From a virus: a DNA stretch of 64,000 bases. How positions within the stretch are numbered: position 1 is the stretch's first letter; each line of letters starts with the position of its first letter. A program made the position numbers and the translations under genes. Location: the IMG/VR virus record IMGVR_UViG_3300018868_001080. One strand, given 5' to 3'. The notes beneath the pieces are model-generated. The model did no database searches. It saw nothing but the letters and a program-made list of their open reading frames with translations, and was not told the origin of the DNA. Of the stretch, positions 9,492 through 58,239 are shown in pieces.

Positions 9492-9504
9492 TATAAATAT
9501 AATC

Positions 9505-10365: not shown

Positions 10366-10418
10366 AGTTATATAATTTCAAACAATAGTCCACTATTGAA
10401 TCATATAAATAAAGACAG

Positions 10419-21531: not shown

Positions 21532-23034
21532 TTAGAAGTAGACTGATTGTGTTCCAGGGGTAAAGGCAACGCCTAGACCCGAGAGGATGATAACGTGATA
21601 GTACAAGTTAGCACCAAAGATGTTATCGACAACACCGTAGCGGGTCATGAGACCAACACGGGGTGCGAAATCATTGGGACCAATTGTACGCTGTACCATG
21701 ACAGGGATGTATGGGCAGTAGATAATACCAGTATCATAGAACTCAGGACCCTTGTAGCCCAGAAGGGCATACTCGAGTGGCTGATTCCGGGTACCAGATT
21801 GGAACTGTGCCTCAGTACGTGTGTCACGATACACATTAAAACGTCCACCAAGCGAACCTACCTTAGCCACGCCTACCGGTTGTGTGTTTACGTTACCCTG
21901 GACAGGTACCCACTGGAATTCAGGGAGCATCTCTAGGATAGCACAAACGCGAGGTGTTGCAACAACAAAGTTGGCTGCACCACGACGATTACGAACGGCA
22001 ATACGGTTAGCTTCGATAATTAGTCTCTGATAGAAATCGCGATTACGTTCAACGAGCCAACGGCCGTCTGCTGAAGCTGGGCTCCAAACAGAGTAGCCGG
22101 CGCCTGCGCCAGCGTTTAGAGCGACCTGGATCATGCGGATGATCATTTCACGATCGATTTCTGCCTGTAGCTCATAGCTCATAGCATTTGTCAATTCTGT
22201 GTCAATGTCAATACCGTTCATGTTCTTGAGATCTTGCTCTAATTCAACTGACCAACGCGCGCCTAGTCTACGTGTACCGGCTTCAACTGCAGTTTTCTCG
22301 AAGGAAACCACGACCTGAGGGATAGATCCCGTCAATTCGTAATCCTTGAGAATACGTGCCACACCTGCATCTGATCCGAGGATCGAGAAGGCAGAGTTAC
22401 CGGACAAGCCGGCAGATGATGTACCAGTGAAACGTGTATCTAGGAACTGATAACCCAATTCTTGTCCATCAGTACCTGCGGCAGTCTGACTGCCGTAGTT
22501 TGTACCAACGGTTGTACCGGTGGCTGATGGCTGACCATCAACACCGTTACCAAGGGCTTCATTCTCGTAACGATAGCGCAAAGCAAATGCCAAACCCACT
22601 GGGCCTGACATGGGCTGCACGCCAACGATTTCATTAGAAATAAGTTCGGGGAACGTTCTACGAATCATGGGAATCAAGATCTTAGGAAGACGATAATCAC
22701 CAGCTGCATAGGTATCAGTTCCAGGTGTGCCAGCTGGATTTGAATTCCAACCGCCTGTTTGTGATGTGCCTATTGAGCCACCGGCAGTGCCGGCAGCATT
22801 TGAACCAGCTTGATTAGCATAACCAACGGCAGGGCTATAATTAGGCCCTGCTTCTCTCAAGCACCACTGCTCTTGGTTTTCCAAGAGAATGGCTGTGTTC
22901 AAACGGGTATGATCATCTTCGATAGCTGCAACGTTCTTGGAAGTGTAATCCAATACTGGACTCCACTTTTCAAGAAGAGCTGAAGCTCTTGACTCGTCAA
23001 TGTATGACTGCGAAGGACGAACAACTTTTTTCAT
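21532..23034 (-). CDS. gp23: Major capsid protein (T4 gp23-like)
   Basis: TAILLENQ, GVQPMSGPVGLAFA, WSVELEQDLK, EIDRE, YCPYIP, GLMTRYG. Confidence 0.97.
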   Translation of the reverse strand: MKKVVRPSQSYIDESRASALLEKWSPVLDYTSKNVAAIEDDHTRLNTAILLENQEQWCLREAGPNYSPAVGYANQAGSNAAGTAGGSIGTSQTGGWNSNPAGTPGTDTYAAGDYRLPKILIPMIRRTFPELISNEIVGVQPMSGPVGLAFALRYRYENEALGNGVDGQPSATGTTVGTNYGSQTAAGTDGQELGYQFLDTRFTGTSSAGLSGNSAFSILGSDAGVARILKDYELTGSIPQVVVSFEKTAVEAGTRRLGARWSVELEQDLKNMNGIDIDTELTNAMSYELQAEIDREMIIRMIQVALNAGAGAGYSVWSPASADGRWLVERNRDFYQRLIIEANRIAVRNRRGAANFVVATPRVCAILEMLPEFQWVPVQGNVNTQPVGVAKVGSLGGRFNVYRDTRTEAQFQSGTRNQPLEYALLGYKGPEFYDTGIIYCPYIPVMVQRTIGPNDFAPRVGLMTRYGVVDNIFGANLYYHVIILSGLGVAFTPGTQSVYF

Positions 23035-24008: not shown

Positions 24009-24161
24009 TTATTTTGCAACCTTGGAGATTCTTTGCATGATCTTCTCTTCAATTGCAGTCTTTAAGTATTTATTGGCCGCGGCAAAGTTTTTCTCAGAAA
24101 TTGCTTGAATAAATTGATTAATTTTCAGCTTTGCCCCGTTCTTGACTAAGTCTTTCTGCAT
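24009..24161 (-). CDS. 50-aa prohead core-like protein (gp67-like), absent from the ORF track
   Basis: MQKDLVKNGAKLKINQFIQAISEKNFAAANKYLKTAIEEKIMQRISKVAK; TAAATA-N5-ATG; lies in the head module. Confidence 0.65.
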   Translation of the reverse strand: MQKDLVKNGAKLKINQFIQAISEKNFAAANKYLKTAIEEKIMQRISKVAK

Positions 24162-24169
24162 AAAAATAT

Positions 24170-24844
24170 TTATACTGCCAGAGTCATTTTTTTAAAGAAA
24201 TTTGATATTTGTTCTTTTAAATATGACTCCACATCCACTCTAGGCAAGTTCTTCAGTGTGTTGCAAAACGTGTCATACACCTCTGCATACTTGCCATCTG
24301 CTTCCAGAACAAACTGCTTGGATTCCAGAATACCATTGACAAAGGCCTTGGGAAACGATGGATCTGCAACACAATCAATGGCCACCAGACGCATTTCTGT
24401 GACACGTTGTATGCCACTGGATTGTTCTTCAAGCTTGCCCAAGGCGCGCGATGACATGCCAACTCGCACACCATCATTCACAAGAGAGCGCACAATCATG
24501 CCCATGGGGGTGGTTAACACCTTGGATTTGCCATAAAATACATTACCATCTTGCTTGAGCTCTGTAACCAAGTGACAAGCTCTTTCCAAGTCCACATCAG
24601 CAGTGGTGGGGTGATTTAATTCTCCCATGGAGCGGTTATTCTTGATGAGCTCGTCACTGTACCGTGTTACTTCACGTGCCATTTCATTCACATCATACAC
24701 TCTGTTATTTTTATTAACACCTTCAGCCATCATGTATGGTCCATTGATGTACAGAGTGGCAGGGCCTTTGGAATTCTTCTCTTCTAAAACATATTCAAAT
24801 TGTTCTTCAGGAGCAGGTCTTTCTACCAATAGTTTTAGAGCCAT
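24170..24844 (-). CDS. gp21: Prohead protease (gp21-like)
   Basis: NKNNRVY, GELNHP, GMSSRALG, DCVADPS. Confidence 0.95.
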   Translation of the reverse strand: MALKLLVERPAPEEQFEYVLEEKNSKGPATLYINGPYMMAEGVNKNNRVYDVNEMAREVTRYSDELIKNNRSMGELNHPTTADVDLERACHLVTELKQDGNVFYGKSKVLTTPMGMIVRSLVNDGVRVGMSSRALGKLEEQSSGIQRVTEMRLVAIDCVADPSFPKAFVNGILESKQFVLEADGKYAEVYDTFCNTLKNLPRVDVESYLKEQISNFFKKMTLAV

Positions 24845-24882
24845 AATAATATTTATATCTTGGAAATGCTATTTTTATGAGC

Positions 24883-48544: not shown

Positions 48545-49513
48545 TTAACTCTTGAGAGATCGGAGTGCGGTTATGGCTTGCTGATCATTAGGATTTTTTC
48601 TAATTCTTTGTATGAGTTCTTCTGCACGGCCTACATTCTGTTGCACTGGTGCTGTATCAGTGGCCACTGGATCTGCTGCACCAGTAATACCACCGCGACG
48701 GGCAGTACCAGCTATCTGTCGTTGCAACTGCTGCGGTGCACCACCTGCAGCAGACTTGAGCGCTTGACCCAATGCACGCGGTGCATTCACAATGCGTGAA
48801 TATGCACCAATGCCTTTGGTGAGCGCATTTACTGGTGCAGCTGCAATTTTACTGATCATATCTGGTCCCCGGGGTTGTGCAGGTTGTGGTGCAAGTGCAG
48901 CTGCAGCTGCAGCTTGTGCAGACACTTGATTGCGATAATTCTGATTGACAGTTCGTCCTGGTGCGCGCTGCTGCTGTGGTTGCTTTGGTTTGATTGTTGC
49001 TTTGGGTGCACTATTAGATGGTGCTGCAGGTGCGACAGGAGGAGCTGGAGGTGGTGGTATTTTTCCGCCCCCGGCAGTAGCTACAGGTGCTTTTACTGCA
49101 GGTGCAGGTGCTACTGCTGGTGCTGGAGCTACAGGTGGTACAGGTGCTACTGCAGGTGCAGGTGCTACAGGTACCGGGACAACTGCTGGCGCCCTTGATG
49201 CAGGCTTTACAGGTGCATTGGGCACTGTCTTGTACTTGCTGATAATATCCTGATACCTGCTCTCAAACTCTGACATCTTCTTTTTTGCAGCTGACTTCTC
49301 TCCCTGTGGTGCACTTGGGTCATTTGCAATCCTATTCATTACATCATACTGCTTGGCTATTTTTGCAGCATCAACAGGCTTTTTGCTTGCAGGTGCAGGC
49401 ACTGTCGTTGCTGCAGCTTGACTGGGCTGCGGCAATGATGGTCGAGGTGGTGGTAGCTGAGGTACACCCTGCTCTTCAATTAAACTGTGGAAGAAATTAT
49501 TAAACTTGCTCAT
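48545..49513 (-). CDS. Pro/Ala-rich low-complexity protein
   Basis: PAVAP repeats; MSKFNNFFHSLIEE N-terminus. Confidence 0.6.
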   Translation of the reverse strand: MSKFNNFFHSLIEEQGVPQLPPPRPSLPQPSQAAATTVPAPASKKPVDAAKIAKQYDVMNRIANDPSAPQGEKSAAKKKMSEFESRYQDIISKYKTVPNAPVKPASRAPAVVPVPVAPAPAVAPVPPVAPAPAVAPAPAVKAPVATAGGGKIPPPPAPPVAPAAPSNSAPKATIKPKQPQQQRAPGRTVNQNYRNQVSAQAAAAAALAPQPAQPRGPDMISKIAAAPVNALTKGIGAYSRIVNAPRALGQALKSAAGGAPQQLQRQIAGTARRGGITGAADPVATDTAPVQQNVGRAEELIQRIRKNPNDQQAITALRSLKS

Positions 49514-49913
49514 TGCTTAGAATATACTCCTTGTACAAATCTTTTATATGCACATCATTCAAGCCATTGTCCTTGAGTATGGCTTCAATTGCCACAATGT
49601 CAGCCAAATTGACAATCATTTCACCTGCAGGTGCACCCAGTTTTTGCAGAATAAAAGCTTTTAATCCTTGTAAATTATTGTGTGTAGGTGCTGCCACCAT
49701 GGAAGCAGGCAGATCCACCATGGGGTTCATGTCTTGTGCAGGTTGCATCACTACAATGGAAACTGAGCCACCACACTCATGCAGCACATAACCCTCATAG
49801 CCTGCATATGCTTTGAATGCATCATGCTCTTTGTTGAGAGGATCAAACTTTATGCGTATTCTTTTCAAATTCTGCGCTTTGGCAGTACTCTCAATTAGTT
49901 GATCAAATTTCAT
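49500..49913 (-). CDS. Late hypothetical protein
   Basis: MKFDQLIES N-terminus; TAAATA upstream. Confidence 0.6.
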   Translation of the reverse strand: MKFDQLIESTAKAQNLKRIRIKFDPLNKEHDAFKAYAGYEGYVLHECGGSVSIVVMQPAQDMNPMVDLPASMVAAPTHNNLQGLKAFILQKLGAPAGEMIVNLADIVAIEAILKDNGLNDVHIKDLYKEYILSNEQV

Positions 49914-54772: not shown

Positions 54773-55306
54773 ATGTACAGAGATGATATTAACAATTTAA
54801 ATAATGCCTTCTTAAAGGTAATAAATGAAGGTGTAGCAGATTTAGGACCTCAGGCAGACTCACAGCAGGGTTTGTCACCAGTGATACCCACCATAATCAA
54901 GGGCAAGCAAGAGGAGTGTGAGGATTGTGGGTGCGATGGCAGCTCTACAGCTGCATCAGTCAATCCACCGGATGCTGATGAAATTGAAATGGCCAGGGGT
55001 GAGCTACACAACACCATTCGCCATGCCATTAGTTTGTATGCAAAACTCAAAACAACCAACAATCTTGAGGCTTGGGTGCGCGCAAAAATAACAAAAGCTG
55101 CAGATTATTTGAACTCTGTGAAACATTACATGGACACTGATGAAGTGCAGAGTGAGCAAAATGAAGAACAGGAATTGTTCAATGCTCTTGATCAAGGTTC
55201 AACAGATATCATGCACAAACTTTCCAGCATACTTGCACGTGAAAGCAAGGAAAATTTAGAAAAAATCTTGTTTGAAGTGGTGCAGTTGATTGAAAAGAAA
55301 ACTTAA
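54773..55306 (+). CDS. Late hypothetical protein (start revised to MYRDDI)
   Basis: LEAWVRAKITKAADYL motif; TAAATA-N5-ATG. Confidence 0.65.
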   Translation: MYRDDINNLNNAFLKVINEGVADLGPQADSQQGLSPVIPTIIKGKQEECEDCGCDGSSTAASVNPPDADEIEMARGELHNTIRHAISLYAKLKTTNNLEAWVRAKITKAADYLNSVKHYMDTDEVQSEQNEEQELFNALDQGSTDIMHKLSSILARESKENLEKILFEVVQLIEKKT

Positions 55307-56091
55307 TACATCATTCGACCAACTGTCAAACCGCCATCCACCTGGTAGGGCGGGTTGGTGAGTTTGTTACCAAATGCCTTGTCTGTATCTTTCATCAATT
55401 CTTTGCCCAGAAAGCTGTTCACTTCATTCTCTTCGCTGCTGTAGCTTGCAAGATGCTTGTCAAAGATTTTCTTAATCTTGTCATGATTGCTGGTGTACAT
55501 CTTCTTAATTAAATTCATCTTCTGATTGTCAGTGAGCGTGCTATACATCTTGCGCAATTCAGATGCACTCTCAATATCCTTGCCAAAGATGTTGCTACCA
55601 AATTTAATTGCTGGAAATGTGTATATGTAGCCATGCTTGGAAAATGGTTCCATGTTTGCAACAGAATAATCCTGAAAATATGATGCAGTACCATCCTTCT
55701 TGATGCGTGTGAACAATGACTGCCTGGTGGGGTCTTGCTTCTCTTTGCTACTCACTGCAAATACAGCCTTATCTTTATCAGGATTATATTTCTTGAGAAT
55801 CTCCTCTGATCTGAATGGTGACTTCACTTCAATAATTTTATTCGGGTCTATGCCTGTGGATGATATTATGAGCTTCTTCTCTTGAGCTGTGAATGGTCTC
55901 TCCTCTGTGTAGCCTGTTATGGCTATGTAGGTATCTGCATCTGGAAATGTATGTTGTATGTTATCGAAAATGCTTTTATGGCCCAAATGAAAAGGATGAA
56001 AGCCACCTGGAAAAATTACTACTGTCTTGCCCGTACTCTCTACAATAAAATGCTTGTGAACAATGCTCTCTACCAATGCATCGAATTTCAT
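55303..56091 (-). CDS. Cytidylyltransferase-like (HxGH) nucleotidyltransferase
   Basis: FPGGFHPFHLGH, SASELR. Confidence 0.8.
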   Translation of the reverse strand: MKFDALVESIVHKHFIVESTGKTVVIFPGGFHPFHLGHKSIFDNIQHTFPDADTYIAITGYTEERPFTAQEKKLIISSTGIDPNKIIEVKSPFRSEEILKKYNPDKDKAVFAVSSKEKQDPTRQSLFTRIKKDGTASYFQDYSVANMEPFSKHGYIYTFPAIKFGSNIFGKDIESASELRKMYSTLTDNQKMNLIKKMYTSNHDKIKKIFDKHLASYSSEENEVNSFLGKELMKDTDKAFGNKLTNPPYQVDGGLTVGRMMY

Positions 56092-56414
56092 CTATTTAAA
56101 TCTACATCCGGATCATATTTTCTCACCAGTGTGATGAGCTGTGTGAGTACTTCCTTGGCATTCTCCGGGTTAATGTCTGGCAGCTCAATGATGGTGTCTG
56201 TGTCTGTGGTGTCAGGCTTGATCACAAGAGCTTTCTTCAGCAACCTCACCAGCATTGTCTCACCTTCAGAAGTTAAAGGTGCAGCAGGTTGAGCAGCAAC
56301 AGGTGCAGCTGCATCTGCAGGTGGCATGGCGGCATCTTGTGCAGGGGGCAATGCAGAGGCAGGCTCCTGTTCAAGTAGGTGCTGATATTTTTTCAGAGTT
56401 TCTAGAAATTTCAT
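56088..56414 (-). CDS. Hypothetical protein
   Basis: MKFLETL..LLEQ N-terminus, PA-rich. Confidence 0.6.
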   Translation of the reverse strand: MKFLETLKKYQHLLEQEPASALPPAQDAAMPPADAAAPVAAQPAAPLTSEGETMLVRLLKKALVIKPDTTDTDTIIELPDINPENAKEVLTQLITLVRKYDPDVDLNR

Positions 56415-56417
56415 AAA

Positions 56418-56876
56418 TTAGGTTTGTATTTGACCTGCCACGCTTTTTATTTTTGAAGAAAGCTTCTTGAGAAGAACACCATAGGATCTTTCAATATCTT
56501 TCTGCGGATTATCAAAAGGATTCAGCCCACCCTTTGCCTGTCCACCTGCGAGGTTTTTTACCAACATTACATCACTGGCAGAAATTGAATTTTTACCTAG
56601 AATACTTGATGAATTTTCTGCATTCTCTTCACCGCCACCTGTGTCAGATGCATCTGCAACCTGGTTACCATCTTCATCCATATCAATAATGTTGTAGCCT
56701 GCAGCATGCTTGCGCATCATGCAATAACACTTTTTCTTGGAAGTGGGATGCTGATATTTGTGTATCACATCAAATTCATCGGAAACATCTGCACAATTAT
56801 CTGACTCCATGGCGCTAGCTTCACGCAGATCCAGATCTTCATATATAGAAGACAGCTTCACAAGGTACTTGCTCAC
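56418..56876 (-). CDS. Late hypothetical protein
   Basis: TAAATA-N5-GTG. Confidence 0.6.
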   Translation of the reverse strand: MSKYLVKLSSIYEDLDLREASAMESDNCADVSDEFDVIHKYQHPTSKKKCYCMMRKHAAGYNIIDMDEDGNQVADASDTGGGEENAENSSSILGKNSISASDVMLVKNLAGGQAKGGLNPFDNPQKDIERSYGVLLKKLSSKIKSVAGQIQT

Positions 56877-57481: not shown

Positions 57482-57907
57482 TTACTCAACAAATCGGTTC
57501 TTAAATTCTGTTGGTGGCGTGCCTATGCGTACATTTATTATGCCGTTGTAATAGTTGTCATTGAGCAGCACATCTCTGGCTATTTGTTCTTTTATTTCAA
57601 AATAAGCTAACTCCCATTTGGATCCACATGTGCGTAGAATTTTAAATTCAAACTGTTCTTTGCCAAGCTTCAGCATATCTGCATTCAATTCATTTGATGA
57701 GCTAGTATAGCCTCTCCAGCTTGATTCCTTGATTTCAATTCTATTTCTAGTCTTGCCCTTGAGCGGCTTTTTCTTGTGTCTGGATTTGCACTGCTTCTTG
57801 CCAATGTACTTCTTGTTGGTGCTTAGATTCGTTATTTCGTATATGAAGCCAAATGTTGTTTCATCAATAACAACACCATCTGCCAATAGCCAGTGTCCGG
57901 TGTCCAT
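57482..57907 (-). CDS. Stand-alone GIY-YIG nuclease domain protein
   Basis: GFIYEITN..KKYIGKK, WRGYTSS, YYN. Confidence 0.8.
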   Translation of the reverse strand: MDTGHWLLADGVVIDETTFGFIYEITNLSTNKKYIGKKQCKSRHKKKPLKGKTRNRIEIKESSWRGYTSSSNELNADMLKLGKEQFEFKILRTCGSKWELAYFEIKEQIARDVLLNDNYYNGIINVRIGTPPTEFKNRFVE

Positions 57908-57935: not shown

Positions 57936-58205
57936 TCACATGCCTGTAAGAGGCCTGCGCATAACCACCATTTTCACCTTGCCCTTGCCTTTGCTCTTTC
58001 TTCCCTTAGCACCCAAAGCAACTGGCGACCGGTAATCGTCCTTGTTATATTCATCTTTACCGGGTGTGCCTGAGGGTATATCCTTCCAATCAGATGTTTG
58101 GAACGTTCCCAGAGATCCCCCGGAACCTGCTGTATTAGAAGCTGCAACTGTCATTGCACCTGCATCCTCTATGAGCTTGGCAAACAATATATCAAACATT
58201 TTCAC
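57936..58205 (-). CDS. Small late protein resembling the gp23 N-arm, with basic C-terminal tail
   Basis: About 24/42 identities to gp23 residues 76-117; TATAAATA-N6-GTG. Confidence 0.75.
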   Translation of the reverse strand: MKMFDILFAKLIEDAGAMTVAASNTAGSGGSLGTFQTSDWKDIPSGTPGKDEYNKDDYRSPVALGAKGRKSKGKGKVKMVVMRRPLTGM

Positions 58206-58239
58206 TTTAATTATTTATAGTATACATTATAATAAAGAT

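Follow-up and report, generated by a model that had tools for sequence, protein, structure and literature searches.

The analysis reported here points to a small gene of an uncultured lake T4-like phage whose product reads as the major capsid protein gp23 from just before its maturation cut to the end of its N-terminal arm, with no HK97 body. Most likely, this conserved arm copy gene is no gene fragment but encodes a head protein of a new sort that a protease processes, and the protein appears to be cargo with a capsid-targeting leader, a variant of that known kind. We know of no description of a free, selected copy of the N-terminal arm of a capsid protein. The gene occurs in every long genome of the clade that could be checked, and related gp23 capsid proteins in public metagenomes number more than 4600.

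The small gene and its likeness to the capsid arm

The gene occupies 57936..58205 on the minus strand of the window, by which we mean the whole 64,000-nucleotide stretch of phage DNA that was analysed, and comprises 89 codons and a stop in the open reading frame that the first-pass annotation had described. Its start codon is a GTG, which is taken to be the conserved start because distant orthologues have only GTG at this place and no ATG at the second possible start. The late-type element TATAAATA stands 6 nt upstream of the GTG (58212..58219, minus strand) and is also present in the 74%-identical relative. The NATAAATA element is placed 0-12 nt (mostly 4-8) upstream of the starts of the gp21, sheath and tube genes and of the small gene, an arrangement that suggests promoter activity of the NATAAATA/TATAAATA element and late transcription of the small gene. 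If NATAAATA works as a -10 box of the T4 type, one would expect late mRNAs with little or no leader and no Shine-Dalgarno sequence. Sites of NATAAATA in the window were noted at 24850-24857, 24167-24174, 9492-9499, 10404-10411 and 58212-58219, together with about 15 others. Between the window and the phage genome record there are 16 single-base differences in 64 kb (positions 2949, 15780, 17136, 18182, 20114, 22794 and ten more), none of them inside the small gene, and the one at 22794 alters one residue of the gp23 arm.

The gene for the gp23 major capsid protein lies at 21532..23034 on the minus strand (PF07068 (Gp23), E 4.9e-93), and the copied segment corresponds to gp23 residues 62-127 (22654..22851, minus strand), after the L-R-E maturation site. 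BLASTP with composition-based statistics aligned residues 16-88 of the small protein with residues 71-144 of its own gp23 at 30/74 identities (E 2e-13). When either partner was shuffled 2000-5000 times the best shuffle scored 59-70 against an observed score of 121-123 (z 16-19), so that G/S/T composition is no explanation for the match. The resemblance to the gp23 N-arm noticed in the first-pass annotation is thus significant by BLASTP and by shuffle statistics; its mapping of gp23 residues 76-117 to nt 22684-22809 is correct, and the L-I-E and L-R-E motifs, the basic tail and the TATAAATA element at 58212-58219 to which it drew attention are all present. The single other match to the small protein in its own 112-kb record is again gp23 (E 5.8e-11). 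Over 49 aligned codons the two genes have a nucleotide identity of 54% and use the same codon at 11 of 26 identical residues, and in this sense the DNA is indeed, as had been claimed, more diverged than the protein.

The small protein stops at the R-R motif of the arm, short of the span of the Pfam Gp23 model (gp23 residues 118-474), and it has no Pfam match and so no detectable HK97-fold body (P and A domains) of PF07068. Outside the arm, gp23 is mostly invariant between relatives, while the segment after the maturation cut is hypervariable and exists in several distinct types; the arm copy in the small protein is better conserved than the gp23 arm itself. As aligned, the gene derives from the 5' part of gene 23, cleavage site included.

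Orthologues, modules and the capsid arms of the clade

Near orthologues with 74-86% identity occur in other lake metagenomes, and a profile search of 1.8 billion representative proteins together with IMG/VR scans returned further small orthologues with identity down to 23%. Comparison with the 74%-identical orthologue gave a dN/dS of 0.089 at a dS of about 1.9, with comparable values for neighbouring genes, and the selection on the protein that had been suspected at first reading is therefore purifying (dN/dS 0.09). In the family alignment (n=15) the frame is intact throughout and the indels are all in-frame. The small gene was present in 8/8 long records that could be paired, two of them complete per CheckV. 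Wherever the context is visible, it lies between a divergent uvsY and a GIY-YIG gene of 134-146 aa, and the same four ORFs follow further downstream in relatives with sufficient flank. This is a real gene that is subject to selection and occurs throughout this phage clade, having been found in every related record examined.

In the window, the gene directly downstream encodes a GIY-YIG protein of 141 aa (57482..57907, minus strand; Pfam SegE_GIY-YIG, domain only) and probably shares a transcript with the small gene, whose stop codon overlaps the GIY-YIG start in one lineage. The GIY-YIG protein is 65-86% identical in the twelve relatives compared and its gene holds the same place in all records looked at. 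Based on this identity and synteny, we regard it as a fixed gene and no mobile seg element, and the small ORF is not its cargo. T4 has 24, hoc, inh and segE near uvsW, and the echo of the inh/segE neighbourhood that had been proposed for this locus fails on the same grounds. Located beside uvsY and uvsW, the GIY-YIG protein may be a late DNA-debranching nuclease.

A phage collection searched with the small protein (tblastn) and with the locus (blastn) gave no match, the nearest gp23 in that collection being 34% identical. Neither Pfam nor PHROGs holds a family for the small protein, in the ESM Atlas it falls only among unnamed viral clusters, and cyanophage P-SSM2 lacks a duplicate of its gp23 arm. 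A single Gp23-family gene was found in G001 and in G000, with no gp24-type vertex paralogue in the complete relatives and no other Gp23-family gene piece in the genome. With one Gp23-family gene only, there is no gp24-type vertex protein, and the pentons are presumably made of gp23. Origin of the small gene as a relic of a gp24-type gene was ruled out, given that the arm fits the clade's own gp23 type and that the T4 papers give an N-fist for gp23 only.

All 15 family members have a common plan, in which a leader is followed by the gp23 arm copy, an inserted Lys/Arg tract and a closing RR motif. The leader of the window's protein, residues 1-13 (58167..58205, minus strand), is a proposed capsid-targeting sequence with a gp21 cleavage site, and carries Phe4, Leu7 and Phe8 ahead of L-I-E at 11-13. 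Across the family the leader is 10-17 aa long and ends in hydrophobic-x-Glu, with Phe4 in 15/15 members and the closing Glu, put forward at first reading as a candidate cleavage site, likewise kept in 15/15, even though identity between members falls as low as 23%. At position 7 stands Leu, Phe, Tyr or a similar residue; in clades 2 and 3 the leaders are aromatic at positions 4 and 7 and hydrophobic at 8, with Glu at 10 or 11. At P3, clade 1 and one clade-2 genome have Leu or Ile and the other members Cys, Phe or Met, and in these other members the cognate gp23 sites are in part non-canonical at P3 too. An AF2 monomer model from 15 sequences placed a helix at residues 3-14 and no fold beyond it (pLDDT 58).

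The copy of the gp23 N-fist/N-arm, identified by BLASTP, shuffles and the arm tree, takes up residues 14-64 (58014..58166, minus strand). The orthologue P0007 retains G-P-N-Y-x-P-A-V, the residues directly after the gp23 cut, which makes the x-E of the leader positionally homologous to the gp23 maturation site. Residues 65-89 (57939..58013, minus strand) are, by the 15-sequence alignment and by charge, a Lys/Arg-rich tract and then hydrophobic-x-R-R-P. Since the closing hydrophobic-x-R-R-(P) corresponds to M-I-R-R of gp23, the basic tract is taken to be an insertion into the arm, and it reads as such in one relative in which the preceding residues are those of gp23 up to K-I-L. The sequence of the tract is variable, with a net charge of +7 to +13 over the last 32 residues in all members, and the mature forms have a pI of 9.9-12 and a net charge of +6 to +13 in 15/15. 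In this alignment, conservation is modular, with the leader, the arm and the basic tail each retained.

The first-pass annotation had raised the question whether each homologue tracks its cognate capsid, and by scores and tree it does so at the level of clades and not genome by genome. In eight genome pairs from three clades, the scores of small proteins against arms were 106-142, 38-129 and 53-62 within clades and 12-90 between clades, and orthologous small proteins from different clades score only 14-64 with each other. Cognate pairing summed to 762 compared with 490 +/- 94 for permuted pairings (p 0.0004), the pairs being phylogenetically non-independent and amounting effectively to three clades. 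A nine-residue string is common to the small protein and its own gp23 in two clade-2 genomes and is absent from clade 1. Within clade 1, every small protein finds its best score with the gp23 arm of the same single relative, and that of the window scores 122 against its own arm and 136 and 132 against the arms of two relatives. In the ML tree of 25 arm segments each small-protein group nests among gp23 arms, with the clade-3 copies grouping with a foreign arm type, and monophyly of the small proteins is rejected by the AU test (delta lnL 38, p 0.00015; 62 columns with many indels).

Recent gene conversion was not supported: where the small protein and the gp23 of the same genome have identical residues (18-30), the codon is shared at only 5-16. 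So few shared codons mean that any conversion is old and that the likeness is held at the protein level. Clades 2 and 3 have similar leaders and different arms, a pattern that speaks for a single ancestral gene with later re-matching of its arm in preference to independent duplications. Judged by these scores and this tree, the arm copy remains similar to the capsid arms of its own clade.

The leader, the prohead protease and other late genes

The capsid-targeting sequence (CTS) of T4 is MKTYQEFIAE. Its positions 4 and 7 serve targeting and positions 8 and 10 processing, and gp21 cleaves after L/I-x-E (PMC9026906). By position, the leader pattern of the family resembles this CTS, the leader of the window having 13 residues versus 10 in T4. 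A gp21-type prohead protease, the presumed processing enzyme, is encoded at 24170..24844 (minus strand; Peptidase_S77, E 7e-30) with TATAAATA 5 nt before its ATG, and the genome also codes for a T4-type scaffold protein. Between the gp21 and gp22 genes lies a 50-codon ORF (24009-24161, minus strand) with its own TATAAATA; a 47-codon counterpart precedes the protease gene in the complete relative, and the product may be a small core protein.

A leader-type motif ending at residue 7-17 was found in 8/19 late ORFs of this genome (background 9.7%, p 2e-4) and in 18/48 of a complete relative (background 7.1%, p 2e-9), where late ORFs are those with the NATAAATA element and the control consists of internal windows of the same proteins, not early-gene N-termini, hydrophobic-x-Glu being a short motif. 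Late ORFs with leaders of the M-K-F-D-x-L-x-E type lie at 55303-56091, 49500-49913, 56088-56414 and 56418-56876, all on the minus strand, and more leaders of this type occur at G000 positions 84682 and 102123 (window numbering). One leader-bearing late ORF encodes a cytidylyltransferase-like enzyme, which implies either that enzymes are packaged, like T4 Alt, or that the leader is less specific than assumed. The leader-bearing late ORFs may represent a set of head-packaged proteins, and in combination with this set the CTS-like 13-residue N-terminus of the small protein suggests, in the first place, a head-internal protein that is packaged and processed. Should the leader function as a CTS, the packaging-tag system of T4 would be far older and wider than the T-even phages, these lake phages would package a whole set of tagged proteins, and the tag could be read straight from sequence in uncultured phages.

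Possible roles in the head and comparison with known systems

A head protein packaged and processed in the T4 style agrees with the leader and its Glu, with the late-type element, with the protease and with the basicity of the mature part; we hold this assignment to be evenly balanced. In the mechanism proposed here, the amphipathic leader of 13 residues would take the protein into the scaffolding core of the prohead in the manner of the T4 CTS, and a gp21-type protease would cut after L-I-E. The arm copy of about 50 residues would then engage the same partner surfaces as the capsid arm, and the Lys/Arg tract would hold the peptide of 76 residues left after processing (pI about 10) to packaged DNA or to the acidic core. 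Targeting, cleavage, head location and DNA contact of the small protein are predicted from features of its sequence, and we see about an even chance that it is a head-targeted, gp21-processed internal or core protein mimicking the capsid arm. A plain DNA-binding internal protein needs no conserved arm copy, which indicates that the arm has a further role, only guessed at in this reading; inside the head, the arm copy could bind scaffold, attach in trans to the shell or influence the contacts between shell and core.

The T4 literature describes the copied segment. In T4, the N-fist consists of the first 25 residues of gp23*, and the N-arm comes next; each N-fist touches four subunits and helps to build the Soc binding site (PMC9958956). 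Before expansion of the head, gp23 residues 66-105 lie inside in disordered form, probably on the scaffold, and expansion brings them to the outer surface; the head-length mutations A66D, A94V and G97S map to these same residues (PMC9546572). As in T4 the segment, in which head-length mutations lie, probably contacts the scaffold and later staples capsomers, a copy acting in trans would be a direct handle on its working.

Among the more specific readings, it seems to us rather unlikely that the detached arm docks in trans on the lattice or the shell-core interface, with the lysine tail holding DNA and with recurrent conversion or co-evolution keeping the match, although such a docking arm, if true, would be a new class of head component helping to set capsid stability or size. 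An unlikely reading, the chief proposal of the first-pass annotation, is that the processed peptide becomes part of the mature shell and fills N-fist/N-arm sites without a gp23 neighbour, at the portal vertex and the pentons, its tail reaching the DNA. The segment copied would suit such a role, being the N-fist/N-arm segment that stabilises the expanded shell in T4, and the copies lie near the capsid arms of their own clade; there is no gp24-type vertex paralogue in the complete relative, and conservation is higher in the copy than in the gp23 arm, which would be expected of a free peptide that has to bind more tightly than one that is tethered. However, no match is seen genome by genome, the copy in the window fitting two relatives' arms better and those of clade 3 going with a foreign arm type. 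In addition, the T4 arm ends on the outer surface, so that outward threading of a peptide freed inside is hard to picture, and a few sites per head would be a small job for a gene with a consensus late-type element. Quite improbable, in our judgement, is an assembly regulator that competes with or supplements shell-core contacts and thereby helps to determine head size or shape, as T4 gp67/gp68 probably do, or that serves as a decoy substrate in gp21 timing. The equivalent T4 residues 66-105 do lie inside the prohead, probably on the core, and carry A66D, A94V and G97S, the small core proteins of T4 are cut by gp21 and implicated in size determination (PMC9026906), and the family retains the gp23 cleavage context. 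Competition for scaffold sites nevertheless leaves the conserved Lys/Arg tail unexplained, unless the acidic core is bound, and a single cleavage motif differs from the several cuts made in T4 core proteins.

A small basic DNA-binding partner of the downstream GIY-YIG nuclease, with the capsid-like segment as a relic, is a very unlikely identity for the protein. The two genes adjoin in every genome seen, with the stop/start overlap in one lineage, and as no Endonuclease VII family gene was found in two complete relatives the nuclease may play an important part late in infection. Synteny is just as strong for four more genes downstream, though, so the adjacency is not specific; moreover, a relic would stay neither near-invariant within a clade nor like the clade's capsid arms, and the leader and its conserved Glu would go unexplained. 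T4 seg genes flank genes 23/24, and the ORF adjoins a GIY-YIG gene of the SegE Pfam family, which would agree with a decaying gene 23 or 24 fragment, homing-endonuclease cargo that is open by chance; we consider this hardly credible. The dN/dS is 0.09 with dS saturated, the frame is intact in 15 diverged sequences with indels in-frame only, the GIY-YIG gene is found in every relative at 65-86% identity and not sporadically, and the genome holds no other piece of a Gp23-family gene. The dN/dS of 0.09, together with presence in all related records examined, ruled out a pseudogene or homing-endonuclease cargo.

The processed head protein that we favour can be compared with several known systems. 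In phiKZ-like giant phages, whose ejection and inner-body proteins bear propeptides, a gp21-related protease cleaves many head proteins after Glu, and the products remain in the head (PMC9026906). Those proteins are, in contrast, large, unrelated to the capsid protein and cut at the motif S/A-x-E. T4 gp67 is acidic and is cut more than once. The small protein differs from gp67 and gp68 in being basic with one cleavage motif, and no similarity to them was found, although it is small as they are and probably late too, and they belong to the scaffolding core, are cut by gp21 and are linked to head size (PMC9026906). T4 gp24 offers a further likeness as a gp23 paralogue with a short leader, its propeptide of 10 residues being removed after L-x-E (PMC9026906, PMC9546572). 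In gp24 the HK97 fold is complete and, according to the T4 papers, there is no N-fist, whereas the small protein consists of fist and arm with no fold.

The closest likeness is to the internal proteins of T4: small, strongly basic and cleaved a single time behind the CTS, they contact DNA through lysines. No sequence homology to IPI, IPII or IPIII was found (no Pfam or PHROG match), so that the small protein is at most IP-like in its working, and it differs from internal proteins in that its predicted mature part is a copy of the capsid arm that stays similar to the capsid. To our knowledge, no internal protein has been described whose mature part copies a capsid arm. Nonetheless, the small protein resembles the CTS-bearing internal proteins of T4 in being small and highly basic with a late-type element, and in a leader of about 10 residues with aromatic or hydrophobic residues at 4, 7 and 8 and hydrophobic-x-Glu at its end, and, as at the IP loci of T-even phages, several late ORFs with similar leaders stand in one genome.
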